In this document: positions 923 to 15,488 of the stretch, in pieces
Layout of the letters: every line of letters starts with the position of its first letter
Position numbering within the stretch: the first letter of the stretch is position 1
NCBI RefSeq assembly: GCF_050320075.1
Contig: NZ_CP190018.1
From: Escherichia coli
GTDB taxonomy: Bacteria; Pseudomonadota; Gammaproteobacteria; Enterobacterales; Enterobacteriaceae
Strand: one strand, 5' to 3'
DNA length: 64,000 bases
Program-made: the position numbers and the translations under genes
The notes under the pieces: generated by a model
Told to the model about the DNA's origin: nothing
The model's input: only the letters and a program-made list of their open reading frames with translations
Databases searched by the model: none

Positions 923-1890
923 AGCAGACTCCGGTTCTGATGCTGACTCCACGCCGTGGCGCTAATGCTGGCAACGATGATGATGCCGGTGATCAATGTT
1001 TGCCAGTAAGACGAGACTCCCAATAAATTTAGCCCGTTTTGCATCACTGCCAACAACACCACGCCGAGCAAAGTACCGGTTAACGTGCCGCGCCCGCCGA
1101 GCAAACTAGTGCCGCCAAGCACCACCGCAGCCAGTACTGTCAGCTCATAACCCAGAAGAGAATCGGGGGCGACAGTCATCACCGTCCACGACTGCACTAC
1201 ACCCGCAGCGCCAGACATCAATCCCATATAGCCGTAGACGAAAAGTTGCAGTTTCAGCACGCTAAAGCCGATGCGACTGGCGGATTCACGGTTCCCGCCA
1301 AGGGCATAAATTTTGCGCCCTACACTGGTGAAATTCATGATAAACGCTGTCAGCAGCACCACCGTAATCATGGCGATCAGCGGCAGACCAAGGCCATAGT
1401 CATAGCCGTCAGCATCGGTGTACTTGAACAACATTCCCCCCTGCTCAAACCACGGCGGAAAGTCGTACAGCCACACACCTTTACTCAACCATAACAGCAG
1501 GCCATAGAAAATATTCAGCGTCGAAATGGTGATGATGATAGACGGCACCCGTAGGCGATTAACCAGTAAGGCGTTAATTAAGCCAAGTAAAATGCCGATG
1601 CCGCCCGCCAGTGCAAACGCAACAGCAAAGTTGCCACCAATTTTTTGCAGCAGCAGCACCATGCCGTATTGCGCAATGATGGTCATTGCCGGAAACGAAA
1701 TATCAATCCCACCGGAAATTAACACCACAAACAAACCACAGGCGAGAATAGTCAACATGGCATAGTTATTGGCGAGATCGTACAAATTACCGAATGTCAG
1801 AAACTCGTCGCTGCGCCAGGCAAGGCCAACAAACAGCACCACAATCAGTAATGCCAGCCAGAATTCATGGCGTTTTTTCAGTTCAGCCAT
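919..1890 (-). CDS. Sugar ABC transporter permease (RbsC/LsrC-like), 323 aa
   Basis: ORF-track protein is strongly hydrophobic and multi-helical with the typical permease core. It overlaps the ATPase stop by 8 nt, consistent with an operon. Confidence 0.75.
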   Translation of the reverse strand: MAELKKRHEFWLALLIVVLFVGLAWRSDEFLTFGNLYDLANNYAMLTILACGLFVVLISGGIDISFPAMTIIAQYGMVLLLQKIGGNFAVAFALAGGIGILLGLINALLVNRLRVPSIIITISTLNIFYGLLLWLSKGVWLYDFPPWFEQGGMLFKYTDADGYDYGLGLPLIAMITVVLLTAFIMNFTSVGRKIYALGGNRESASRIGFSVLKLQLFVYGYMGLMSGAAGVVQSWTVMTVAPDSLLGYELTVLAAVVLGGTSLLGGRGTLTGTLLGVVLLAVMQNGLNLLGVSSYWQTLITGIIIVASISATAWSQHQNRSLL

Positions 1891-3382
1891 TTACCACCTC
1901 CGCAATCCTGGCCTGAGAACTGCTGTCAGGCAGGAAGCTATGGGTGATCTGACCTTTTTGCATTACCAAAATCCGGTGGCTTTGATACCACGCTTCTTCA
2001 ATTTCATCGCAGATCATCAATACCGCAATGCCATGAGCCGCCAGATCGCTGATAATGCCGTATATTCCTGCTTTGTTGGCGATATCAACACCGATAGTCG
2101 GGCTATCGAGAATCAACAGTCGTGGCCCAATCGCCAGCCATTTGGCGATCGATACTCGCTGCGCGTTACCCCCAGAAAGCGTATTCACCGGGAGATGTGG
2201 GTCAGAGACTTTGATGGTCAATGCCTTGATTAGCCTGTCCACCAGGTCACGCACTTTAGCTTCACTCAGAAAGCCGAAGCGATCTTTTACCTTGTGAAAA
2301 ACAGTGCTAATGATGTTGTCTTCAATAGATTGCGCCATCACCAAACCGCGCGACATGCGATCTTCCGAAACATAACCAATACCGTGGCGGATGGCGTCCT
2401 GGTTACTATGCAGTGTAACCAGCTGGCCGTTGATGAGGATCTCGCCAGCATCCGGTCGGGTCATACCAAACAGACTCAGACATAATTCCGTGCGCCCCGC
2501 ACCAAGCAGGCCAACAATCGACACCACTTCGCCCGCTTCCACCCGCAAGTTAATATTTTGATATTCCCCATGACGACTTAAATTACGCACCTCCAGCACT
2601 GGGATGCTGGATTTTCCCTGCCACAACTCTCGCACCTGATATTCAAACTCCTGGCCGGTCATCAGGAAACCGAGTTGTTTTGTGGTCATCTCTGCAGCCG
2701 GAAAGGTCCCGACCAGCTCACCATCTTTCAGCACTGAAATACGGTCGGAAACTTCCATCACTTCTTCCAGACGATGACTGACGAAGACCACGCAGATCCC
2801 GCGTTCCCGCAATTGATGCACCACCTGTAATAACCCTTGCACTTCCTGATGGGTCAGCGAAGCGGTTGGTTCATCCATCACGATCAACCGTGCGTCCTGC
2901 GCCAGTGCACGGCAAATTGCCACCAGCTGACAGCGGGCAATTGAAAGCTCAGAAACGAGCGTATCCAGTGGCAATGTGACGTTAATACTGGTCATTGCCG
3001 CCTGCGCCACCTCACGCAGACGACGGCGGTTAACAAACAGACCGTGGTGATAGTGATTCACGGCGATATTCTCCCAGACACTCAGGTTAGGAAATAAAGA
3101 GAGGTCCTGATAAATCACCTGAATCCCCTGCGCCACCGAAGCGGCGGGTGTCAGCTTTGACCAGTTTTTCCCACCAAGCGTAATTTCCGCTCCCTCATCC
3201 GGGCGATAAACACCGGACATAATTTTAATCAACGTCGATTTACCACAGCCGTTTTGCCCGGCAAGGCAGTGCACCTCACCCGACATAAAGTCGAGAGAAA
3301 CATCGCGCAGCGCTCGCGTGGCATGAAACGTTTTGTTGATATGACGAAGGGAAAGGAAGGTTTCCATAGCATCCCCTGGCAA
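1883..3382 (-). CDS. Sugar ABC transporter ATP-binding protein with duplicated ABC domains, about 494-499 aa
   Basis: Two nucleotide-binding domains are visible: Walker A GQNGCGKST in the N-terminal half, a second P-loop GLLGAGRTE, and signature-like LSGGNAQ. The start may be the internal METFLSL (3367). Confidence 0.8.
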   Translation of the reverse strand: MPGDAMETFLSLRHINKTFHATRALRDVSLDFMSGEVHCLAGQNGCGKSTLIKIMSGVYRPDEGAEITLGGKNWSKLTPAASVAQGIQVIYQDLSLFPNLSVWENIAVNHYHHGLFVNRRRLREVAQAAMTSINVTLPLDTLVSELSIARCQLVAICRALAQDARLIVMDEPTASLTHQEVQGLLQVVHQLRERGICVVFVSHRLEEVMEVSDRISVLKDGELVGTFPAAEMTTKQLGFLMTGQEFEYQVRELWQGKSSIPVLEVRNLSRHGEYQNINLRVEAGEVVSIVGLLGAGRTELCLSLFGMTRPDAGEILINGQLVTLHSNQDAIRHGIGYVSEDRMSRGLVMAQSIEDNIISTVFHKVKDRFGFLSEAKVRDLVDRLIKALTIKVSDPHLPVNTLSGGNAQRVSIAKWLAIGPRLLILDSPTIGVDIANKAGIYGIISDLAAHGIAVLMICDEIEEAWYQSHRILVMQKGQITHSFLPDSSSQARIAEVVNG

Positions 3383-3415
3383 TAAGAATCGGGGCTTTCG
3401 CCCCGAAGAAATGGA

Positions 3416-4213
3416 TTAATAAAGTGAGTCGATATTGTCTTTGTTGACCAGTAATACCTTATGGAAACGGATAATTCGCTTATCCATATCTACGTCGGCC
3501 TTACCGAGATTCTCCATTTCTAATCCAGGTTTGATCTCTTCACCCTTCAGCAACGTGCTGGCGACGGCCGCGAGTGCGTAACCTGCAGAGGCCGGATCGT
3601 AAGTAATCCCTTCGGTGATATCACCACTTTTAATCAGTGATGCCGCCTGTGAAGGGATCATCATGCCATAGACTGCGACTTTATTTTTCGCCCGTTTCTC
3701 TTTCACTGCACGTCCCGCGCCAATCGGACCGTTTGAACCAAAGGAGACAACCGCTTTCAAGTCAGGATAGGTTTTCATCAGGTCCAGTGTGGTACGACGT
3801 GAGTCATCCACACTCTCGGCAACCGGCATGCGGCGGGTAACTTCATGCATATCCGGGTAATGCTCTTTCTGGTATTTCACCAGCAAGTCAGCCCATAAGT
3901 TATGCTGCGGCACGGTCAAACTACCCACGTAAATCACATAGCCGCCCTTGCCACCCATGCGTTTCGCCATATGCTCAACATATTCAGCGGCAAATTTTTC
4001 GTTATCAATGATTTCGATATCCCAGTTAGCACTTGGCTGACCGGGGGATTCGTTGGTCAGAACCACAATTCCGGCATCTCGCGCTTTTTTGAATACCGGT
4101 TCCAGCACGTTGGCATCGTTTGGCACAATTGTAATTGCATTAACCTTACGGGCGATTAAATCCTCAATGATTTTAACCTGTTGCGGAGCATCAGTACTTG
4201 AAGGCCCCACCTG
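3416..4213 (-). pseudogene. Periplasmic sugar-binding protein (LsrB/RbsB family), C-terminal fragment cut off by IS150
   Basis: The ORF runs right up to the IS150 left end. The translation continues the N-terminal fragment at 5657..5849 once IS150 and one copy of the CCTG duplication are removed (987 nt, 328 aa). The track start is a GTG created at the junction. Confidence 0.8.
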
Positions 4214-4260
4214 TGTACTGCACCCATTTTGTTGGACGATGAAATGGAATAGCCCCTAAT

Positions 4261-4782
4261 ATGTCAAAGCCAAAATACCCTTTTGAAAAGCGCCTTGAAG
4301 TCGTGAATCACTACTTCACAACTGATGATGGTTACAGGATCATCTCGGCACGTTTTGGTGTCCCCCGAACCCAGGTCAGGACATGGGTTGCCCTCTATGA
4401 AAAACATGGAGAAAAAGGTTTAATTCCCAAACCTAAAGGCGTTAGTGCTGATCCAGAGTTGCGTATTAAGGTCGTGAAAGCTGTGATCGAGCAGCACATG
4501 TCCCTTAATCAGGCTGCTGCTCACTTTATGCTTGCTGGTAGTGGTTCTGTAGCCAGGTGGCTGAAGGTCTATGAAGAGCGCGGAGAAGCTGGTTTACGCG
4601 CGCTCAAGATTGGCACCAAAAGAAACATTGCAATATCAGTTGATCCAGAAAAAGCGGCATCAGCATTGGAGCTGTCAAAAGACCGACGCATTGAGGATCT
4701 TGAAAGGCAAGTTCGATTTCTTGAAACGCGGCTTATGTATCTAAAAAAGCTGAAAGCCTTAGCTCATCCCACGAAAAAGTAA
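4261..4782 (+). CDS. insJ: IS150 OrfA (InsJ), HTH DNA-binding transposase subunit, 173 aa
   Basis: Protein MSKPKYPFEKRLEVVNHYFTTDDGYRIISARFGVPRTQVRTWV... is recognised as IS150 InsJ. The A AAA AAG frameshift heptamer lies at 4743-4749 near its 3' end. Confidence 0.9.
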   Translation: MSKPKYPFEKRLEVVNHYFTTDDGYRIISARFGVPRTQVRTWVALYEKHGEKGLIPKPKGVSADPELRIKVVKAVIEQHMSLNQAAAHFMLAGSGSVARWLKVYEERGEAGLRALKIGTKRNIAISVDPEKAASALELSKDRRIEDLERQVRFLETRLMYLKKLKALAHPTKK

Positions 4783-5630
4783 AAGTACTCAACGAGCTAA
4801 GGCAGTTTTATCCTCTTGATGAGCTTCTCAGGGCTGCGGAGATACCGCGCAGTACGTTTTATTACCATCTAAAGGCTCTCAGCAAGCCTGACAAGTATGC
4901 GGACGTTAAAAAGCGTATTGGTGAGATTTATCACGAGAATAGAGGCCGATACGGATACCGTAGGGTAACGCTGTCTCTTCATCGAGAAGGGAAACAGATT
5001 AACCATAAAGCTGTTCAGCGCCTGATGGGAACCCTCTCACTTAAAGCAGCGATTAAGGTCAAGCGATACCGCTCTTACAGAGGAGAGGTAGGGCAAACCG
5101 CCCCTAATGTTCTCCAAAGAGATTTCAAGGCTACGCGGCCAAACGAGAAGTGGGTTACCGATGTTACTGAATTTGTAGTCAATGGGCGCAAGCTGTATTT
5201 GTCTCCAGTAATAGATCTCTTCAACAACGAAGTTATTTCTTACAGCCTTTCGGAAAGACCAGTGATGAACATGGTTGAGAATATGCTCGATCAGGCATTC
5301 AAAAAGCTTAATCCTCACGAGCATCCTGTTCTGCACTCTGACCAGGGATGGCAGTATCGTATGAGAAGATATCAAAATATCCTTAAAGAACATGGTATTA
5401 AACAAAGCATGTCCAGAAAAGGCAATTGTCTGGATAATGCTGTGGTGGAGTGTTTCTTTGGAACCTTAAAGTCGGAGTGTTTTTATCTTGATGAGTTCAG
5501 TAATATAAGCGAACTGAAGGATGCTGTTACGGAATATATTGAATACTACAACAGCAGAAGAATTAGCCTGAAATTAAAAGGTCTGACTCCAATTGAATAT
5601 CGGAATCAGACCTATATGCCTCGTGTTTAA
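4743..5630 (+). CDS. insK: IS150 OrfB (InsK) integrase-core reading frame, made as an OrfAB fusion by -1 frameshift
   Basis: The -1 frame is open from the slippery site to 5630 and reads ...[32 protein letters not shown]...DVTEF...HSDQGWQY...LKSE (DDE motif). The track lists only the ATG-initiated part, 5025..5630. Confidence 0.85.
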
Positions 5631-5656
5631 CTGTCCAACTTTTTGGGGTCAGTACA

Positions 5657-5849
5657 CCTGTGAGGCATTAACACCAAAGGCTTTACCCGCCTCGACCACA
5701 CCTTCGCCCATGCGATTAAACCACGGCATACCATCGACTTTAGAGATATTCACCACGACTTTTTCCGCTGCCTGGAGCGGCGCAGAAATTAGCGCAGCGC
5801 CTAATAACAGCGAAGACACCATATTGATAACAAAACGTTTATTCATCAT
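5657..5849 (-). pseudogene. Periplasmic sugar-binding protein (LsrB/RbsB family), N-terminal fragment with signal peptide
   Basis: MMNKRFVINMVSSLLLGAALISAPLQAAEKVVVNISKVDGMPWFNRMGEGVVEAGKAFGVNASQVY: signal peptide followed by an LsrB-like N-terminal motif. It ends at the IS150 right end. Confidence 0.8.
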
Positions 5850-6099
5850 TTCAGCCTCATTGCAGGGTAGTCAGGAAGTGTTCGCCCAAATTAGCGCGCT
5901 GGAGAGAATAAGAATTTTCGAATATTTTTATGCAGAATAAACAGCCCTATTTCAGGCAGCTATTAAAAATTTGGTTATAAATATGGACAAAACGGGCAGT
6001 AACAATAAGTGTGACAATCATCACGTAAAAAACAGCAAAATAAACAAAATTAGCGATACTTTATGTTTGTGAGCTTATTTCGCGTAGAAAAATAGTTAT

Positions 6100-6510
6100 C
6101 TACACAACGTCAATAAGGGCATATTCTTCAAAGATAACGTCCATTTCTGGTGAATAGCATCCTTCTGTCTGGAAAAAACGACGGTGTTCATTACGCCAAT
6201 ATTCAAGACTGAGGTCACCTTCACCTTCCTTACGGGCAAGCTCTGCGGTGACATCAGAAAAGCGCAGTAAATGCAGGCCAATCACTCTGATAACACAGAC
6301 AGGCTCACCACGGCTATTTCCTACTATCTTATACTCACCAATCATCGGAAATGCGTTGTCTTCAATACATCCCGCCAGCGAACCACAGGAAGCTGTTTTA
6401 ACACCTGTCGCAATCAACGTTGCGAGGTGATCGGCCAACGCTGCTGAATCGCCAAAAGTACAAAAGGAAGCATGGGGATATTTTTGTGAGATTTTTTCTT
6501 TTATGGTCAT
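6100..6510 (-). CDS. ASCH-domain (PUA-like) protein, about 136 aa
   Basis: The ORF resembles small ASCH proteins such as YqfB (LIATGVKTASCGS ... GEPVCVIRVIG ... TAELARKEG). Start assumed at internal MTIKEKIS; the track start is 6543. Confidence 0.45.
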   Translation of the reverse strand: MTIKEKISQKYPHASFCTFGDSAALADHLATLIATGVKTASCGSLAGCIEDNAFPMIGEYKIVGNSRGEPVCVIRVIGLHLLRFSDVTAELARKEGEGDLSLEYWRNEHRRFFQTEGCYSPEMDVIFEEYALIDVV

Positions 6511-6807: not shown

Positions 6808-8190
6808 TCAACCTGCCACACTCCCCCACACCAGTTGCCCTTTATGGAACGTCGCCGTTCTCGGCGAGATACGCGCCACCGCCTCGGCGGAACAGGAGGC
6901 GTCCACCAGCACAAAGCTGGCATCATCCTGCGCTTTGGGCCACACGCGCTCGCCTTTTTCGTTGAGCGGCAATACATCGCCAGTGGCTAAAAACAGCGAG
7001 CGGGAGAGGTTCTGTTCGTTAGGACGAATATAGAGCTGCGCGTACAGATTGGCTTTTTCCAGCATGTCGCCCAGGCCGTAAGGCGACCAGTGGTCGATAA
7101 CGCTGTCGGTGCCGGTCATCACTTTTACGCCTTTGTCGTGCAACTGTTTGAGCGGCATATGCAGCGTGCCAATCGGCACCGTCGAGGCGATAGAAATTTG
7201 CTGCGCCGCCATCCGGTGCGCCAGTTCATCTACCTGTTGCTCATTGAGCGTTGCCAGCGCAAAGGCGTGGCTGATGGTCAGCTTGCCCTTCAGTTGCGGC
7301 GTTTTCTCCACCGTTTCAACCATATAATTGATGGCTGCCACGCCTGCCGGAGTGGTTTCGTGCAGGTGAATATCAACGCCTTTGTCGTAGTCCAGCGCAA
7401 TCTGGAACATGGTGTCGAGGGATTTTTCCATCGCGCCATCAACACTGGTCGGGTCCAGCCCGCCGACGTAATGCGCCCCCGCCTGCATCGCTTCGCGCAT
7501 TAAGGGTTCTGATTTCGACAGCAGCAAACCGTGCTGCGGGAAGGCGACAATTTCACACTCGAAGCCCGCCTGACGTCGCGCCAGAACCGCCTGCAAATTT
7601 TGCAGATTTTTCAGGCCGGAAACCGGTTCGATATTGCAGTGGCTGCGGGAAATGGTAGTGCCTTTCGACTGCAATAAATCAATCAGTTTTTCCGCCCTTT
7701 CCTGAGTGTACGGTTGCAACTCCGGCAGCATTTTCTGCTCGAGTTTGATCATGTCCTGGATGGTGGTGCATGCCGGACGATTGAGCGAGCGCCACGGCCC
7801 GCCGTAGAAGGTTTTGTCGAGATGAATATGCATGTCGCGGGTGGTGGGCAGCATCAGCTTACCGCCAGCGTCATAGTGCGGCAGCGTGGCGTCCGGATGC
7901 TGATTGTTCTCGCGCAGTGCAACAATTTTGCCGTTCTGAATTTCCACAGTCTGGCGCGCCGTGCGGGTCTGCACCGCCACGCCATTTTCGTAGTCAAAAC
8001 CGGTTTCCAGCAACACGTTGTCGAGATAGTAGTGCGGGTCAGTGATTTTCATGGTGTTATTCGCGTCGCAGTGGGTTGTGCCAGAGACTGCCGCATGGGC
8101 GAGCGGCACAGAGGTACCAAACAGCGCGGCGGCGGTGACCATCTTACCGCTCTGGCTCAGAAACTCACGGCGGCTATTGCTTTCTTTCAT
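6808..8190 (-). CDS. yahJ: Metal-dependent amidohydrolase/deaminase with a twin-arginine signal peptide, 460 aa
   Basis: N-terminus MKESNSRREFLSQSGKMVTAAALFGTSVPLAHA has an SRRxFL Tat motif and an AxA cleavage site. The body carries amidohydrolase-like HxH and metal-ligand motifs. Length and context match YahJ. Confidence 0.75.
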   Translation of the reverse strand: MKESNSRREFLSQSGKMVTAAALFGTSVPLAHAAVSGTTHCDANNTMKITDPHYYLDNVLLETGFDYENGVAVQTRTARQTVEIQNGKIVALRENNQHPDATLPHYDAGGKLMLPTTRDMHIHLDKTFYGGPWRSLNRPACTTIQDMIKLEQKMLPELQPYTQERAEKLIDLLQSKGTTISRSHCNIEPVSGLKNLQNLQAVLARRQAGFECEIVAFPQHGLLLSKSEPLMREAMQAGAHYVGGLDPTSVDGAMEKSLDTMFQIALDYDKGVDIHLHETTPAGVAAINYMVETVEKTPQLKGKLTISHAFALATLNEQQVDELAHRMAAQQISIASTVPIGTLHMPLKQLHDKGVKVMTGTDSVIDHWSPYGLGDMLEKANLYAQLYIRPNEQNLSRSLFLATGDVLPLNEKGERVWPKAQDDASFVLVDASCSAEAVARISPRTATFHKGQLVWGSVAG

Positions 8191-8199
8191 CTTACGTCC

Positions 8200-9150
8200 T
8201 TACGTTTTAATAATATGGGTGCCCGTTTCACCGCGCAGCGCCGCAAGCAGGCATTCCGGCGTGGTGATAATCACTTCTTTGCCGCCCTGTTCCAGGAACG
8301 TCAGGCTGGCGATGATTTTTGGCAACATGCTGCCAGGCGGAAAATGCCCTTCCTGCATATAGCGGGTCATGGTGGCAATATCCACCCGATCGAGCGCCTG
8401 CTGCTGCGGTTTGCCAAAGTGAATACACACTTTTTCGACGCCAGTGGTGATCACCAGAATGTCGGCGTGAATTTCACGGGCCAATAGCGCGGTAGAGAGA
8501 TCTTTGTCGATAACCGCGTCCACGCTTTGGTAATCCCCCGCTTCACTGCACACCACCGGAATTCCGCCACCGCCCGCGCCAATCACCACAAAGCCTTGTT
8601 GGATCAGCGCCTTAATGGCAGGTGCTTCTACAATACGTTGCGGTTCCGGCGAGGCGACCACGCGGCGATAGCCCCGTCCGGCATCTTCAACAAAACGCCA
8701 GTCAGGGTTTGCCTTTTGTAATTCGTCACGCTGGCTGTCACTAAAGAATGCGCCGATGGGCTTGGTGGGATGAGCAAAACCCGGATCGTTTTTATCCACT
8801 TCCACCTGAGTCACCACGGTGACGGCTTTTTTCTCGCCATGACGCGCCAGTCGGTTGTTCAGCGCCTGTTGGATCAAGTAGCCAATGCCGCCTTGCGTAT
8901 CCGCCACACAGTTCGCCAGCGGCGTTAAGGGCAGCCCTTCGCGCTCGTGGGCAATCTCCGCGCGGCGTAAATCCAAACCGACCTGCGGTCCGTTGCCGTG
9001 GGTCAGCACAATGTCGTAATCGGAAGCCAGCATTTCCAGCACCGTATCGGCGACGGCTTTCACCGCCTCCGCCTGATGCTCAATCGACTGGCTGGCGTTA
9101 TCTTTGATAATGCTGTTGCCACCAATGGCAACGACCACAAGTTCTTTCAT
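8200..9150 (-). CDS. yahI: Carbamate kinase, 316 aa
   Basis: MKELVVVAIGGNSII... and the amino-acid-kinase fold are typical of carbamate kinase. Start taken at the internal ATG, giving 316 aa; the track ORF extends to 9267. Confidence 0.8.
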   Translation of the reverse strand: MKELVVVAIGGNSIIKDNASQSIEHQAEAVKAVADTVLEMLASDYDIVLTHGNGPQVGLDLRRAEIAHEREGLPLTPLANCVADTQGGIGYLIQQALNNRLARHGEKKAVTVVTQVEVDKNDPGFAHPTKPIGAFFSDSQRDELQKANPDWRFVEDAGRGYRRVVASPEPQRIVEAPAIKALIQQGFVVIGAGGGGIPVVCSEAGDYQSVDAVIDKDLSTALLAREIHADILVITTGVEKVCIHFGKPQQQALDRVDIATMTRYMQEGHFPPGSMLPKIIASLTFLEQGGKEVIITTPECLLAALRGETGTHIIKT

Positions 9151-9245
9151 ATTGTTATGTCCGCTACAGAGGGTGATGGGGTTATGAGAGTGAGGTTGCC
9201 CCTCTCCCCAGAAGGAAGAAGGGATCGTAAGGTGCAGTTGGAGGG

Positions 9246-10664
9246 TCAGACGCCGTAACGTTCGCACCAGCCAAGAATGGCTTTCTCGAAGCAGGCGAAT
9301 GGTGGATGCACAATGCCCGCGCCAATCATGCCAACGCCCGCATCTTTATGGGCAATGGCGGTGTTGATCACCGGCAGAATGCCGCTACTGCCCACGCGGG
9401 TGATGTCGATTGCCGACGGCACGCCCATAAAACCGAGCAGCGGAATGGTGACGTTGGGGTTTTCACCGAGAGTGATTTCGCGCATCTGACGGGAGAAATC
9501 GATAGCCTCTTCCACCGTGCCGCCCACCAGCGCGACGATCGCGGGCGCGGTAGCCATAGCAAATCCACCAATGCCGTAGGTTTCGGTGATGGCGCTGTCG
9601 CCAATATCCAGCCCCGAATCTTCCGGCTTATAACCGGCAAACATCGGGCCGATCACCTGCTGCGCCGGACCGGTAAACCATTGCCCCGGTAATCCGCTGA
9701 CCCGCAGGCCGAACTCGACGCCGTTACGCGCCATCGTGGTGACCACGGTGCTGTATTCGATGCCGTGCGCCGCATCCATCGCCGCTTTACACATCGCCAT
9801 CCACGTCGGGCCGGAGAAGTAGTCGCTGCTGGCGACAAACTCAAACACTTCGCGCTGTTGCTCGACGGAATAACCTGCCTGAATAATCCCCGGCGTCAGC
9901 GCCTGAATCAGCAGCGTCGTCCCGGCGTTATTACGGTTATGGCATTCATCGCCCATATGCAGCGCCTGCGCCAGCATTAAGCGCAGATCGATTTCGCCGA
10001 TAATTTTCATCGCGTCGCGCAGCATTGGCCCCTGCACATCGCGCATCCAGTTGAGGCGGTCAATCACGCTCTGGTCGTTAGCGCCCATACGCAAAATCTT
10101 CGCCATCTGCTCGCTCATATTGGTGTAAGCGATGTTGCCGTAGGTTTTGTTTTTTACGATGTGCATAAACATCGAGGCCGAGGTAACACCTGCCATCGAT
10201 CCCACACAGTCGTGTTCATGGCACGGCGAGAAGGTGATCTCCCCGGAGGCCGCCAAGTCAGCCGCCTCGTCGAGATCTTTCGCCAGCCCTTCGAACACCA
10301 GCGCCCCGGTGACCGCGCCTTTCATTGCGCCGCACATTTTTTCCCAGGTCACTGGCGGCCCGGCGTGAAGAATGGTTTTCGGCGTCATTCCCGGCACCAC
10401 GTTAATCGCCTGATCAAAACCAATCAGCACCGGATGCGACTGGATAATGCGCTCCAGCGCCTGCTGGTTAGCGGCGGCGATTTTGTCTGCCAGCGGCGAA
10501 TCGGCAATGTTATCCAGCGCCTGCACCACCTGCATATTGCCCTGCCCCGGCGGCGTCCAGTCGAGTTGGGTCACTTCTACATGCTGCTTTTTCAAATCAT
10601 CGCTAAACATGGCGATGCCGACGTTAATAACGTTCAACGGTTGGCTAAACAGTGACTGGCTCAT
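9246..10664 (-). CDS. yahG: DUF1116-family protein (YlbE-like), 472 aa
   Basis: Length and position match yahG. The stop overlaps the yahF start by 1 nt, suggesting translational coupling. Confidence 0.7.
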   Translation of the reverse strand: MSQSLFSQPLNVINVGIAMFSDDLKKQHVEVTQLDWTPPGQGNMQVVQALDNIADSPLADKIAAANQQALERIIQSHPVLIGFDQAINVVPGMTPKTILHAGPPVTWEKMCGAMKGAVTGALVFEGLAKDLDEAADLAASGEITFSPCHEHDCVGSMAGVTSASMFMHIVKNKTYGNIAYTNMSEQMAKILRMGANDQSVIDRLNWMRDVQGPMLRDAMKIIGEIDLRLMLAQALHMGDECHNRNNAGTTLLIQALTPGIIQAGYSVEQQREVFEFVASSDYFSGPTWMAMCKAAMDAAHGIEYSTVVTTMARNGVEFGLRVSGLPGQWFTGPAQQVIGPMFAGYKPEDSGLDIGDSAITETYGIGGFAMATAPAIVALVGGTVEEAIDFSRQMREITLGENPNVTIPLLGFMGVPSAIDITRVGSSGILPVINTAIAHKDAGVGMIGAGIVHPPFACFEKAILGWCERYGV

Positions 10665-12211
10665 CAGGCTTCCTCCCCTTTGCAGATAAATTCACGCGCC
10701 AGCAATCCGGTATTGGTGCTGCTGCTTGCCAGAATTACCCCAGCATCAAGCAGCATCTGGCTTTGTTGTTCTAACGATGGCGTATCGAGATCGGTACCCA
10801 GCACATAGGCGAGAATGATCAACTCGCGCCCTTCGGCAGCGGCGATCGCTTTCGCCTCTTTGATCGCCTCGATGGTGGAACCGACCGGATCTTCATGCGA
10901 TCCAAACCCGAGCACAAAATCCATCACGATCACCGCCACTTCTGGATCGTGCGCCTCTTCGATCAAGCGGCTGATACGGTTGGTGGGGTCAATCATTGGA
11001 TGCGGCTTGCCGTTGGTGAAGTCGTCATCGCCAAAGTCGAGGAAGGTGTGTTTGATGCTGCGGTTGATATCTTGCAGGCGGAATTCAGGATCGGGCTGAA
11101 TGTTGCTGTAGACATCGCCATGTTTTTCCATCACCGCGAACATGGTTTCGTCACACAGCGTACCGCCGCAGAACAGGCCACGAATGTATTTCTGTTGCGG
11201 CTTCAGGCGAGCGCGCACGTCAGCAATCAATGGCTGGTTCAGGGTATGCAGATCGAGATGTTCCTGTTTCACGCCGGAGAGCATCACCGCTTTCAGCGCC
11301 GCTTCTTTGCTGCCGCGGGCAAACTTTAGCCCCTGCTCATCCACTGGCGTTTCGCCACGACCGAGGAAGCAGACCACCACCGGCTTGCGGCAGGCGCGTG
11401 CGCGTTCCAGCACTTTGCGGGCCACCGCAGGCGCAGGCGGTTTGGAGATAAGCACAATAATTTCAGTTTGCGGATCGTTTTCCAGCATCCCGATGGCGTC
11501 GAGCATCATCAGGCCGCCGATTTTCTCGCTCAGGTCGCGCCCGCCGGTGCCGATCAGTTGCGAAACGCCGCCGCCAAATTCATGGATACGGACGCTCAGC
11601 TCCTGGCTACCGGTGCCGGATGCGCCAACAATGCCGATGTTGCCGCGACGCACGGCGTTACCAAAGCAGAGCGCCGCGCCGTTGATAATCGCCGTACCGC
11701 AGTCTGGCCCCATCATCAGCAGCCCTTTTTCGTGGGCCAACTGTTTGAGCGCCAGTTCATCTTCAACTGAGACGTTATCGGAAAACAGCATCACGTTAAG
11801 ATCGTTTTGCAGCGCCTGACGCGCTTCGCGAGCGGCAAACAGACCGTTGACCGAAATCACCGCCAGGTTACTTTCCGGGATATGCTTTTTGGCGCTGGCA
11901 ATAGTGGCGTAACGCGCCTCGTGCGGGCCGCTTTGCGCTTTGCTGTTGAACAGTTCTTCAATCTCCACCAGCAACTGCTCGTTGTCTGCGCCCGATTTAC
12001 CATTGATGACAATCATCAGGTCACCGTTTTTCGCCTGCTCCAGCTCCGGCGTCAGCAGCCCTAAATTCTTCAGCACGCCTTTGTTCATTTCGGTCGCCAT
12101 CGCCACAAATGCCTGCTCGACGCCGTCAAGTTTATTTGCACGCGTGGAGATAGACATCAGCGAGACAGAATCAAAATAGGTATTCGGTTTAATGACTATT
12201 TTAACTGACAT
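10664..12211 (-). CDS. yahF: FdrA-like protein with a CoA-ligase/succinyl-CoA-synthetase-alpha-like fold, 515 aa
   Basis: Rossmann/CoA-binding style motifs (GIVGASGTGSQ, GxGG). Length and context match YahF, the FdrA paralogue. Confidence 0.7.
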   Translation of the reverse strand: MSVKIVIKPNTYFDSVSLMSISTRANKLDGVEQAFVAMATEMNKGVLKNLGLLTPELEQAKNGDLMIVINGKSGADNEQLLVEIEELFNSKAQSGPHEARYATIASAKKHIPESNLAVISVNGLFAAREARQALQNDLNVMLFSDNVSVEDELALKQLAHEKGLLMMGPDCGTAIINGAALCFGNAVRRGNIGIVGASGTGSQELSVRIHEFGGGVSQLIGTGGRDLSEKIGGLMMLDAIGMLENDPQTEIIVLISKPPAPAVARKVLERARACRKPVVVCFLGRGETPVDEQGLKFARGSKEAALKAVMLSGVKQEHLDLHTLNQPLIADVRARLKPQQKYIRGLFCGGTLCDETMFAVMEKHGDVYSNIQPDPEFRLQDINRSIKHTFLDFGDDDFTNGKPHPMIDPTNRISRLIEEAHDPEVAVIVMDFVLGFGSHEDPVGSTIEAIKEAKAIAAAEGRELIILAYVLGTDLDTPSLEQQSQMLLDAGVILASSSTNTGLLAREFICKGEEA

Positions 12212-13064
12212 AATTCCCTCCGTAGGTTTGGCTCAGCGCACAACCATCGGCCATGCCATACAGCATGTCGCAGCCGGAACTGGAGCCAATATGTTTAATT
12301 TTTTCTATTGCCTGAGTTGCGTTCCCAGGGATGTCATAAATAATGTTATGAATAAAACGATGAATATCTTCCCGGCAGCGTTGTTGTAATGCGGCTTCCA
12401 GCGTTATGGCACTTAATAACGTGGTATTATTTCTGCCGCGTTGCAGACCGAGATAAAATTCCTCTTTGTATTTTTCCGCCGGATGCCCAGGAATAAATAA
12501 AATAAGCGCCAGACCTGTTAAATAATCGTCGGCTGATGGCGTAAGGCCAATCCCTAAGCCCATCATACTGGCGACCGCTGAGGCGATATTTTGTTTATCG
12601 TTTACGGCCTGAATAACTGCCCGTCGTTTAATATGTAATTCTTTATTTAACGCCTGATAAAACGGATTATCGCCGCAATAATTAAACAGGGTTTCATTTT
12701 CCCCCAGGTGCTGATGAATAATGTCATGCCACTGTTGCCAGGCGATAAGGTGAAAATTCACAGCGGTCATTTGCAAGGTTGGGGACAGCCAACGCCGACA
12801 ACGACTCATCTCTATATGAAGATGTTGACCAACCGTAATGCCTTGATCGTCAAACTGAACCTTATCACCATGCCGGAACAGACCATCAAAGTGAGTGAGT
12901 GCCAACCGACAACTGTTTGGCGCATTGTCGTACTCTTCACAAAGCAGCGTCAGCAACTGCTGGCGGGCCGGAAGTGCGATATTTACCGCTCTGGCAAAGA
13001 CCTGTTCAACCTGTCCTTGCCCCCGCTGCGCCAGAAAATCAGCATCCGCAGTTAGCGCCCACAC
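12201..13064 (-). CDS. yahE: DUF2877-family protein (YlbF-like), 287 aa
   Basis: ORF overlaps the yahF start by 11 nt. Length and context match yahE. Confidence 0.65.
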   Translation of the reverse strand: MWALTADADFLAQRGQGQVEQVFARAVNIALPARQQLLTLLCEEYDNAPNSCRLALTHFDGLFRHGDKVQFDDQGITVGQHLHIEMSRCRRWLSPTLQMTAVNFHLIAWQQWHDIIHQHLGENETLFNYCGDNPFYQALNKELHIKRRAVIQAVNDKQNIASAVASMMGLGIGLTPSADDYLTGLALILFIPGHPAEKYKEEFYLGLQRGRNNTTLLSAITLEAALQQRCREDIHRFIHNIIYDIPGNATQAIEKIKHIGSSSGCDMLYGMADGCALSQTYGGNYVS

Positions 13065-13103
13065 ACACCGTCTTTCTGGTGTGTTGATAGCAAGCCTCCC
13101 GGT

Positions 13104-13709
13104 TTATGCACCTGCGGCCATCAGTAACTGCGCAATCTCTTCAAAGCCTCGTTCCCGCGCCAGTTCCAGCGGCGTTTTGCCATATTTATCCGTCATGTGC
13201 GGGCTGGCACCGTGTTCCAGCAATAACTGGACAATCGCCTGCTGTTTAATCCCGCCATCATTAAGCACAATTGCTTCCAGTAGCGGCGTCCAGCCAACAT
13301 GGTTGGTCTGGTTAACGTTAATCTCCGTATGCGCCAAAAGCTCTTTTACAATACTTAAATGGCCTTTTTCACAGGCAGGCGTCAGGCCGACACCGCCAAA
13401 ACGGGTGACGCAATTAAGATCGGGTTTAGCCGGTAAAATAATCCGTAACAGGGTTAAATCGCCGGTCAGGCAGCTAATTAAAAAAGGATTTGAACATATT
13501 TGATCTTGCTTATTAATATCTGCTCCGGCATCAATTAATGCCTGAACGCAAGCATATTGCTGATATAAACTTGCCAGCGTAATTGCCGTTTTCCCCTGAC
13601 GATCGCAGGTATTAATATCGACACCCAGCGCAAGGCAGGTTTTTACTTTATCGATATCACCCTGTTGCGCAGCCAATAAATAGTCGGCAGGTAGATTTTT
13701 TATAGTCAT
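13104..13709 (-). CDS. yahD: Ankyrin-repeat protein, 201 aa
   Basis: Repeated ankyrin-like units (G.TALH/LA...G....V..LL..GAD.N) are visible in the translation. Length matches YahD. Confidence 0.75.
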   Translation of the reverse strand: MTIKNLPADYLLAAQQGDIDKVKTCLALGVDINTCDRQGKTAITLASLYQQYACVQALIDAGADINKQDQICSNPFLISCLTGDLTLLRIILPAKPDLNCVTRFGGVGLTPACEKGHLSIVKELLAHTEINVNQTNHVGWTPLLEAIVLNDGGIKQQAIVQLLLEHGASPHMTDKYGKTPLELARERGFEEIAQLLMAAGA

Positions 13710-13966
13710 TCACATTCCCCTGGTTTTTGTGGCTGTTTTCGATGAATTGAGAATAGCAACGATAATCTGATAAAAGAACCCGCTTAAATTTAATTCGCCG
13801 TATTTCGCCTTTTTGTTGAATGATGTTCAACAATCTTTTCGCAGTGTGCGGTAGTGCAATATTTGTTTCTTTGACCCGATACCCTTTCACTCAATCAGGT
13901 TTTATTTCTCTATAGTCTGCACATGTAAGAGTAGCTTTCGTCCATGTCTAACCAGAGGGGAACAAG

Positions 13967-14464
13967 ATGAACGGACTCACGGCAACGGGTGTCACCGTCG
14001 GTATTTGTGCAGGGCTTTGGCAGTTAGTGTCTTCACATGTTGGGCTCTCTCAGGGATGGGAATTATTAGGAACCATTGGCTTCGTCGCCTTTTGCAGTTT
14101 TTATGCCGCAGGCGGCGGTAAAACGGGGTTTATCAGAAGCCTGGCGGTTAATTATTCCGGGATGGTGTGGGCGTTTTTCGCCGCGCTGGCTGCCGGTTGG
14201 CTGGCCTCGGTGAGTGGATTGTCCACGTTCTGGGCGAGCGTGATTATGACTGTACCCTTCTCGGCGGTAGTGGTCTGGCAAGGACGTTTCGGTTTATTGT
14301 CTTTTATTCCCGGAGGCTTTCTCGGCATGACGCTATTTTTTGCCAGCGGGATGAACTGGACGGTGACATTACTGGGTTTTCTGGCGGGTAACTGCGTGGG
14401 GATAATTTCAGAATATGGCGGACAAAAATTAAGCGAAGCGACGACTAAACGCGACGGGTATTAA
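13967..14464 (+). CDS. yahC: Inner-membrane protein, 165 aa
   Basis: Highly hydrophobic ORF with several predicted helices, transcribed divergently from yahD. Length matches YahC. Confidence 0.65.
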   Translation: MNGLTATGVTVGICAGLWQLVSSHVGLSQGWELLGTIGFVAFCSFYAAGGGKTGFIRSLAVNYSGMVWAFFAALAAGWLASVSGLSTFWASVIMTVPFSAVVVWQGRFGLLSFIPGGFLGMTLFFASGMNWTVTLLGFLAGNCVGIISEYGGQKLSEATTKRDGY

Positions 14465-14555: not shown

Positions 14556-15488
14556 ATGAACTCAATTTTTACCGAAGAGAATCTGTTGGCATTTACTACC
14601 GCTGCGCGTTTTGGCAGCTTCAGTAAAGCCGCAGAAGAGTTGGGTTTAACCACTTCCGCCATTAGCTACACCATCAAGCGAATGGAAACAGGGCTGGATG
14701 TGGTGCTGTTCACTCGCAGTACCCGAAGCATTGAGTTAACGGAGTCCGGGCGTTATTTTTTCCGCAAAGCTACCGACCTGCTGAATGATTTTCACGCCAT
14801 CAAACGCAGCATCGATACTATTTCGCAGGGTATAGAAGCACGGGTGCGCATTTGTATTAACCAACTGCTTTATACGCCCAAACACACCGCACGCTTATTA
14901 CAGGTACTGAAAAAGCAGTTTCCTACCTGCCAGATTACCGTCACCACCGAAGTGTATAACGGCGTCTGGGATGCGATTATTAATAATCAGGCGAATATCG
15001 CTATCGGCGCACCCGACACGCTGCTGGACGGTGGCGGCATTGATTACACGGAGATTGGCGCGATTCGCTGGGCTTTTGCCATCGCCCCGGATCACCCGTT
15101 AGCCTTTGTGCCGGAGCCGATCGCCGAAAGCCAACTGCGTCTCTACCCTAATATCATGGTGGAGGACACCGCACATACGATTAATAAAAAAGTGGGCTGG
15201 TTGCTGCATGGGCAGGAGTCAATTCTGGTGCCAGATTTCAACACCAAATGTCAGTGCCAGATTTTAGGTGAAGGAATTGGTTTTTTGCCGGATTACATGG
15301 TCCGTGAGGCGATGGCGCAATCCCTGCTGGTTACCCGACAAATCCATAATCCGCGCCAGGATTCGCGCATGTTACTGGCGACCCAGCACTCTGCCACCGG
15401 TCAGGTGACGCAGTGGATTAAAAAACAATTTTCGCCAAATGGCATATTAACGGGGATCTATCAGGATTTACTGCATCGGGAGAATTAA
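14556..15488 (+). CDS. yahB: LysR-family transcriptional regulator, 310 aa
   Basis: N-terminal LysR HTH (FTTAARFGSFSKAAEELGLTTSAISYTIKRME) plus a substrate-binding domain. Confidence 0.8.
   Translation: MNSIFTEENLLAFTTAARFGSFSKAAEELGLTTSAISYTIKRMETGLDVVLFTRSTRSIELTESGRYFFRKATDLLNDFHAIKRSIDTISQGIEARVRICINQLLYTPKHTARLLQVLKKQFPTCQITVTTEVYNGVWDAIINNQANIAIGAPDTLLDGGGIDYTEIGAIRWAFAIAPDHPLAFVPEPIAESQLRLYPNIMVEDTAHTINKKVGWLLHGQESILVPDFNTKCQCQILGEGIGFLPDYMVREAMAQSLLVTRQIHNPRQDSRMLLATQHSATGQVTQWIKKQFSPNGILTGIYQDLLHREN

Follow-up and report, generated by a model that had tools for sequence, protein, structure and literature searches.

We analysed a window of 64,000 nucleotides from the Escherichia coli contig NZ_CP190018.1 (assembly GCF_050320075.1), and in it yahD, the gene for a small ankyrin-repeat protein that stands at the head of yahE, yahF, yahG, yahI and yahJ (Table 1). 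The first-pass annotation had placed yahE, yahF and yahG on the strand of yahD and yahC divergent from it, with which the coordinates agree; it had not named the strand, which is the minus strand, that of the 201-residue open reading frame (ORF). The yahD DNA is 100% identical to annotated yahD of several complete E. coli genomes, the region was found in 5091 of 5426 genomes, and in K-12 the ORF is annotated as b0318, 'ankyrin repeat-containing protein YahD'. The gene and the ankyrin nature of its product are already annotated, and hence known. What is new here is the linkage, across phyla, of this ankyrin subtype to one subclass of AllFGH-like enzyme cluster, the TPR-fused form of the protein in Firmicutes, and what is most likely a coupled, non-canonical start of yahE.

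Table 1. Features of the yahD locus in the window
Feature	Position	Strand	Description
yahD coding sequence	13104..13709	minus	201-residue ORF with ATG start; stop codon TAA at 13104..13106
YahD repeats 3-6 (codons 61-201)	13107..13529	minus	near-invariant part of YahD
yahD ribosome-binding region and ATG (CAGGGGAATGTGAATG)	13707..13722	minus	purine-rich Shine-Dalgarno sequence kept in all aligned genera
TTGCTATTCTC box	13749..13759	minus	candidate -10 element of the yahD promoter, from alignment; promoter role putative
TTAAATTTAAGCGGG box upstream of yahD	13779..13793	minus	conserved in alignment
Palindrome ATTGTTGAA-N5-TTCAACAA	13813..13834	minus	9-bp arms; candidate YahB operator
TGCACTACCGCACA box upstream of yahD	13845..13858	minus	TGC..GCA dyad; conserved in alignment
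yahE Shine-Dalgarno sequence GGGAGG	13095..13100	minus	begins 4 nucleotides past the yahD stop
Proposed yahE initiation codon ATC (AUC)	13086..13088	minus	15 nucleotides past the yahD stop; gives a YahE of 297 residues
yahE as annotated	12201..13064	minus	287 residues; GTG start at 13062..13064; Pfam AllH (DUF2877), 99 bits
yahF	10664..12211	minus	515 residues; FdrA/AllF homolog; 11-nucleotide overlap with yahE
yahG	9246..10664	minus	472 residues; AllG/DUF1116 homolog; Pfam AllG, 298 bits
yahI	8200..9150	minus	carbamate kinase family; NCBIfam PRK12352, 643 bits
yahJ	6808..8190	minus	amidohydrolase related to cytosine deaminases; N-terminal twin-arginine motif SRREFL
yahC	13967..14464	plus	165 residues; DUF1097 membrane protein, divergent from yahD
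yahB	14556..15488	plus	310 residues; LysR-family regulator; Pfam HTH_1 and LysR_substrate

The Pfam search for ankyrin repeats that the first-pass annotation had proposed gave strong matches above the curated cut-offs: Ank_2 (94 bits; cut-off 27.3), Ank_4 (93 bits; 22.7), Ank (82.5 bits; 21.1) and Ank_5 (64.4 bits; 27), with E-values of about 1e-24 to 1e-27 for Ank_2, Ank_4 and Ank, far beyond chance. A search of the PDB with YahD returned ankyrin and DARPin chains with E-values down to 5e-70, among which designed DARPins dominate; the RNase L 2-5A-binding ankyrin domain is among the matches to residues 95-187. Two natural single-domain ankyrin proteins of bacteria, both structural-genomics entries and matching YahD in length, align with it from end to end: 5D66 ('uncharacterized protein', 198 residues; E 5e-42), which crosses the insertion in repeat 5 of YahD without a gap, and 3HRA ('ankyrin repeat family protein', 201 residues; E 3e-32); these entries carry no function. 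The AlphaFold2 models consist of six consecutive helix pairs, predicted at residues 6-27, 42-60, 75-94, 110-127, 142-165 and 180-198, with a predicted local distance difference test score of about 90 or higher, and point to a six-repeat ankyrin solenoid. ORF, Pfam, PDB and model thus bear out the earlier description of a 201-residue ankyrin protein. Inspection of the N-terminus revealed no signal peptide or membrane anchor. The best NCBIfam match is AnkG, whose 73 bits fall short of the cut-off of 500, and others score lower, so that YahD fails the models for type IV secretion ankyrin effectors (Legionella/Coxiella Ank) and generic repeats alone match.

The genes following yahD belong to the families of a recently described enzyme. 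AllF-AllG-AllH was shown in 2024 to be the oxamic transcarbamylase, which converts oxalurate and phosphate to carbamoyl phosphate and oxamate; it represents a new, three-gene type of transcarbamylase, and AllH was sub-stoichiometric in the purified preparation (PMC11326118). YahF matches Pfam CoA_binding and Ligase_CoA and the NCBIfam FdrA subfamily (490 bits), and identities to the K-12 All proteins are 38% for YahF/AllF, 45% for YahG/AllG and 24% for YahE/AllH; by these comparisons, YahE, YahF and YahG are paralogs of AllH, AllF and AllG. With its three adjacent FdrA/AllF, DUF1116/AllG and DUF2877/AllH genes and an adjoining gene for a catabolic carbamate kinase (yahI), the locus is of the AllFGH type and resembles AllFGH with its carbamate kinase AllK. 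It is not, however, orthologous to allFGH proper. The K-12 all cluster is a separate locus with other neighbours, another genomic context and another regulator, and its genes are ordered F-G-H rather than E-F-G; a deaminase and a permease accompany the yah cluster, and the ankyrin gene is a feature of the yah type that the all cluster lacks. The AllFGH paper (PMC11326118) does not take up the yah paralogs or the ankyrin protein that goes with them, and yahC, yahE, yahG, yahH, yahI and yahJ have been listed as a dense cluster of unknowns (PMC11551758).

A scan with a YahE alignment, using one genome per species, identified 78 loci, whose six-frame ORFs were searched by BLAST and by hidden Markov model (HMM). 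In each of the 61 proteobacterial yah-type loci, the gene immediately upstream of yahE encodes a YahD ortholog. These loci come from 15 genera: Escherichia, Kluyvera, Citrobacter, Klebsiella, Raoultella, Trabulsiella, Pseudocitrobacter, Yokenella, Serratia, Pantoea, Buttiauxella, Atlantibacter, Providencia, Proteus and the betaproteobacterium Herminiimonas. No ankyrin ORF was found within 10 kb in the 14 distant AllH-family loci or at the K-12 all cluster. One sequence taken up as a possible AllH, P0205 (an 'E. coli' DUF2877 protein 52% identical to YahE), was discarded, its contig being a yah-type cluster cut at the start. Kluyvera, Raoultella and Pseudocitrobacter contain the same block, yahB-yahC divergent from yahD-E-F-G-I-J, and everything outside the block differs; the first-pass annotation had framed the surroundings as a housekeeping locus, a description that does not suit an accessory eight-gene module whose flanks differ between genera.

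Use of a Firmicute yah-type G as the query, with the gene contexts read, added Gallibacterium (Pasteurellaceae) and a set of Firmicute clusters. The order in Gallibacterium is LysR regulator, 196-residue ankyrin protein, E-F-G-X-kinase, where X is a membrane protein described below. Each of the eight Firmicute yah-type clusters (E. phoeniculicola, E. termitis, Trichococcus, Vagococcus, Carnobacterium, Neobacillus, Psychrobacillus and Paenibacillus) encodes an Ank-TPR protein of 362-393 residues, usually directly after G, in which the first ~195 residues are ankyrin and the remainder TPR repeats. The regulator belongs to the LysR family in Proteobacteria and to the PucR family in Firmicutes. 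In Vagococcus fluvialis (L087 7464..14450) the cluster comprises F, G, Ank-TPR, an NCS1 permease, a deaminase and a carbamate kinase, with no AllH/YahE-like sequence within 9 kb. The yah-type G of Psychrobacter urativorans (L083 6877..12384) shares 66% identity with E. coli YahG, and the gene order there is F-G-E, like that of the all cluster. The linkage of ankyrin gene and enzyme cluster outlasts changes of gene order and phylum, and this is strong evidence of shared function. We conclude from these gene neighbourhoods, in which yahD and the cluster are co-inherited with hardly an exception over about 70 genomes, that YahD probably works with the AllFGH-like enzyme cluster; the partnership with YahEFG suggested in the first-pass annotation becomes considerably more credible through comparative genomics.

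Conservation within YahD is uneven. Over 64 unique proteobacterial orthologs, the median identity to the E. coli protein is 78% for residues 61-201 as against 53% for residues 1-60, and 25 of the 38 residues of repeat 5 are invariant as against 4 of 33 in repeat 1; the invariant set takes in hairpin residues that commonly vary among ankyrin proteins. The length is exactly 201 residues in 57 of 58 orthologs from outside Escherichia. Repeats 3-6 carry the family-specific motifs NPFL, RFGGxGxTPAxEKxH and VGWTPLLEAIVLNDG..QQ. We define a YahD subtype by the three signature motifs NPF(L/I), (R/Q)FGG..(L/I).P..EKG(H/Y/F) and (G/S)W(S/T).L(L/I)E(A/S)..L.(D/N)(G/E)G together with the repeat-5 insertion, in a protein encoded inside a yah-type F/G cluster. 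E. coli YahD belongs to this subtype, whose motifs are invariant across the 64 orthologs, common to Gallibacterium and the eight Firmicute Ank-TPR proteins, and missing from the DARPin consensus. The Firmicute ankyrin halves and YahD, unlike the consensus DARPin, have NRFGG..L.PSSEKGY, LGW(S/T)ALLEAVILG(D/N)GG and the repeat-5 insertion. Against a YahD HMM built from Proteobacteria only, the eight Firmicute proteins score 84-143 bits, the alignment being near full length for seven of them and for the Gallibacterium protein, whereas the consensus DARPin gives two partial matches of ~40 bits each.

A profile search of 1.84 billion representatives with the YahD alignment was set aside, since its top 150 entries are giant multi-ankyrin proteins in which the scores of the repeats add up. 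Useless for tracing the family, it did return P0327, a protein of 428 residues in which a lipoprotein-type signal (..LLLQAC) precedes a tandem pair of YahD-like ankyrin domains; the subtype thus also occurs as an exported lipoprotein outside yah clusters.

Upstream of yahD, four boxes (13749..13858) are conserved from Escherichia to Proteus and Herminiimonas, with either yahC or yahB as the divergent neighbour. These boxes probably represent the promoter of the operon and the sites at which its regulator binds, and their conservation indicates that a regulated unit begins with yahD. YahB is the likely regulator: its gene is present in 59 of the 61 proteobacterial loci, the two others being on contigs that end upstream, and common practice in the LysR family suggests that it would bind the palindrome. 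The yahG start overlaps the yahF stop by 1 nucleotide, no terminator-like site was found between yahD and yahE, and a translatomics paper on enterohaemorrhagic E. coli treats yahDEFGIJ as a possible operon (PMC4765031).

The 39-nucleotide gap between yahD and yahE reported in the first-pass annotation (13065..13103) agrees with the annotated genes, but it is probably coding and an artefact of that annotation. From the yahD stop codon, the minus strand reads TAA ACC GGGAGG CTTGCT ATC AAC ACA CCA GAA AGA CGG TGT GTG. Among 62 loci scanned, an AGGAG/GGAGG core lies 1-5 nucleotides past the yahD stop in 52 and within 12 nucleotides of it in 60, and an in-frame ATC or ATT follows 5-10 nucleotides beyond the core in 54. 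At the position aligned to this ATC, most loci have ATC or ATT, Yokenella has ATG, and Atlantibacter, Providencia and Proteus have GTG; the peptide read from there, I/M-(N/D/A)-T-P-x-R-(R/Q)-C-V-x-A-L-T-A-D, is conserved while its codons vary synonymously. The GTG annotated as the yahE start in E. coli is replaced by GTA, GTC or GTT in 12 of 14 loci of the Citrobacter freundii group, ten of which are without a canonical start within 15 codons, and the C. freundii YahE of NCBI (299 residues) begins MATPSRRCV, exactly at the aligned ATC codon. Because of the Shine-Dalgarno sequence, the conserved in-frame AUC or AUU and the C. freundii annotation, yahE most likely initiates at this AUC rather than at the annotated GTG, and its translation is most likely coupled to that of yahD. 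If this is true, the annotated protein would be corrected by ten residues (297 rather than 287), and the AUC or AUU of yahE would be a rare natural non-canonical initiation codon in E. coli. We infer that a weak coupled start may hold YahE low relative to YahD, which would fit the sub-stoichiometric AllH. Stop-codon readthrough producing a YahD-YahE fusion was also considered, as yahE is in frame with yahD in many loci; it was rejected as a general mechanism on the ground that the frames differ in Serratia, Pantoea and Buttiauxella.

The genes that accompany F and G across the clusters are a cytosine-deaminase-like amidohydrolase or a CDA-fold deaminase, a carbamate kinase and one of several transporter candidates, namely an NCS1 'cytosine/purine/uracil/allantoin' permease, the unclassified membrane protein X, or YahC. 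Because a deaminase or amidohydrolase, a permease, a PucR ('purine catabolism') or LysR regulator and a carbamate kinase accompany it, the yah cluster most likely degrades a nucleobase-derived ureido compound by way of carbamoyl phosphate. In the scheme that we propose, yahD-E-F-G-I-J would be transcribed from the conserved promoter/operator region upstream of yahD under the control of the divergent LysR regulator YahB, with translation of yahE coupled to yahD through the Shine-Dalgarno sequence just past the yahD stop and the weak AUC. YahE, YahF and YahG, with YahI, the deaminase or amidohydrolase and the permease, would take a nucleobase-derived ureide through carbamoyl phosphate to ATP, CO2 and ammonia. 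Repeats 3-6 of the cytoplasmic YahD would hold a conserved partner surface. The partner would most probably be the YahF-YahG core rather than the fast-evolving YahE, because YahD is always found with F and G, Vagococcus is without E, and YahE is the least conserved of the proteins (median ortholog identity 55%, minimum 32%; the median for YahG, the most conserved, is 93%). The additional TPR of the Firmicute proteins would fit an adaptor bridging two partners.

On balance, though with confidence only slightly better than even, we favour YahD as a dedicated protein-binding component of the YahEFG subclass, an assembly, stabilising or regulatory subunit encoded by the first gene of the operon. 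This accommodates the role of scaffold or regulator put forward in the first-pass annotation, which the position at the cluster head, the common strand, the uninterrupted yahD-yahE junction, the conserved promoter and the co-inheritance all suit; a scaffold is indistinguishable from a regulator by these features. A stronger version, to which we give tentative and clearly lesser credence, would make the YahD family (Ank alone in Proteobacteria, Ank-TPR in Firmicutes) a fourth subunit, non-catalytic but obligatory, of a distinct and widespread AllFGH-type subclass acting on a nucleobase-derived ureide, the coupling of yahE to yahD via the conserved AUC setting the subunit ratios.

Several observations weigh against a subunit role. 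Psychrobacter urativorans, the sole yah-type exception, has no ankyrin gene within 10 kb. The AllFGH enzyme shows activity when purified with no ankyrin protein present (PMC11326118), so that this enzyme class needs none for its chemistry. No ankyrin-specific insertion or extension that might mark a docking site was found in YahF or YahG. AlphaFold2 modelling of the linker fusions YahD-(GGGGS)6-YahE and YahD-(GGGGS)6-YahG from paired alignments, with the predicted template modelling score alone as a weak readout, gave 0.59 and 0.60, respectively, with each half folded confidently; by our own estimate of the baseline, these values would be about those of undocked halves of such sizes. The searchable literature yielded no functional study of yahD, and a yahD knockout was left out of a metabolome screen owing to an injection error.

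YahD might instead bind YahB as an anti-activator or co-sensor, tuning expression of the operon and not touching the enzyme, much as eukaryotic ankyrin proteins sequester transcription factors (IkB with NF-kB). The divergent yahB in 59 of 61 proteobacterial loci and the conserved operator-like palindromes just upstream of yahD are in keeping with this. We nevertheless consider it unlikely, as the regulator switches from LysR to PucR between phyla that share the conserved ankyrin module, an invariant binding surface is hard to square with unrelated partners, and the Firmicute ankyrin gene is placed after G, inside the enzyme genes. We assign a similarly low probability to an adaptor linking YahFG to the carbamate kinase YahI or to the permease, for handover of carbamoyl phosphate, which is unstable, or for coupling to uptake. 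Such a two-sided adaptor would be expected to have a second interaction module like the TPR of the Firmicute versions, and a carbamate kinase accompanies most clusters, but Carnobacterium and E. termitis both have Ank-TPR with no carbamate kinase within 9 kb downstream, the permease type varies among X, YahC and NCS1, and in the all cluster the same handover takes place with no ankyrin protein.

The lack of a sign of docking in the models with the two protein partners tried, YahE and YahG, would be explained if YahD bound a small molecule (substrate, intermediate or nucleotide) as a sensor or buffer, and the invariant surface of repeats 3-6 and the RNase L match could be read in the same way. 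Ligand-binding ankyrin domains are rare, however, the RNase L match reflects the generic repeat and not the ligand site, and the TPR fusion points to protein binding; we regard this possibility as less likely still. A little more improbable is that YahD acts in the cytoplasm as a chaperone for the maturation or Tat proofreading of YahJ, the exported amidohydrolase. Many substrates of the twin-arginine (Tat) pathway have a dedicated chaperone in the same operon, and YahJ starts with SRREFL; but yahD is kept in three loci that have ample flank and no yahJ (Pantoea L042, P. rustigianii L061 and Herminiimonas L066), most Firmicute clusters have a small CDA-fold deaminase instead, and the known Tat chaperones are of other folds. 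The least probable alternative, in our judgement, is an unrelated cellular role such as cell division, with yahD merely travelling with the operon. In a published expression-library screen, a cloned UTI89 fragment (361,550-364,162) that holds yahD, yahE and a portion of yahF showed 17-fold enrichment among filamentous cells (PMC6206680, Table 2), and the earliest description of FdrA was as a multicopy suppressor of ftsH mutations (PMC11326118). The screen relied on overexpression, however, and did not single out the causal gene within the fragment. Against this role stand the linkage to the cluster, which persists across phyla despite altered gene order, and the probable coupling of yahE translation to yahD.

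For YahD as a protein-binding component of the enzyme, the nearest precedents for an operon-encoded enzyme helper are small bacterial ankyrins encoded beside one enzyme. These are the catalase-associated AnkB of Pseudomonas aeruginosa, with KatB, and Cj1386 of Campylobacter, with KatA. They differ from YahD in that their partner is a catalase rather than an AllFGH-like enzyme, and no heme is involved for YahD, which is by inspection without signal sequence or anchor and has signature motifs of its own. No catalase gene is among the annotated neighbours of yahD, which places it outside the AnkB/Cj1386 type. PyrI, the regulatory subunit of aspartate transcarbamylase, offers an analogy only, as a non-catalytic modulator encoded with a carbamoyl-transferring enzyme (PMC11326118); its fold is unrelated to that of YahD, and its catalytic partner belongs to the classical transcarbamylase family, not to the AllFGH type.

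Some further features of the neighbourhood deserve mention. The N-terminus of YahJ, MKESNSRREFLSQSGKMVTAAALFG, is a twin-arginine (Tat) signal motif, from which YahJ is probably exported, whereas YahD, YahE, YahF, YahG and YahI are probably cytoplasmic. Gene X, encoding a membrane protein of ~515 residues, lies between yahG and yahI in 42 of 61 loci (e.g. L026:13928-15478) and gave no match in Pfam, NCBIfam or the PDB; a guess that it is an AzgA-type nucleobase permease found no support in these searches. X and yahC are mutually exclusive, X occurring in 42 loci and yahC, confined to a subset of the genera without X, in 18, and they may serve as alternative transporters. E. coli has no detectable remnant of X, the yahG-yahI spacer of the window (9151..9245) being free of it; this spacer is 95 nucleotides long here and 421 (yahH/repetitive extragenic palindromic sequence) in K-12. 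A stretch of ~5.4 kb between yahJ and yahK (window ~1413..6510), present in this strain and not in K-12, encodes an ASCH-domain protein and a four-gene sugar-type ATP-binding cassette transporter with an AI-2-like binding protein. At the K-12 all cluster (L086 15681..18617), the C-terminal ~55 residues of AllF/FdrA align to the YahG-type N-terminus and AllG is correspondingly short, at 419 residues; the F/G boundary is shifted in K-12, which may have to do with the ylbE frameshift that has been reported.

yahD and the genes around it are among those of E. coli that are still uncharacterised. In genome annotation, the ankyrin gene can serve as a marker to tell yah-type clusters from all-type ones. 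Its linkage to the enzyme genes across two phyla leads to a testable hypothesis, that of a fourth subunit or adaptor, and is a reason for expressing YahD along with the enzyme in a reconstitution aimed at finding the substrate. If the subunit role is true, YahD would provide the first case of a bacterial metabolic enzyme with an ankyrin-repeat subunit.

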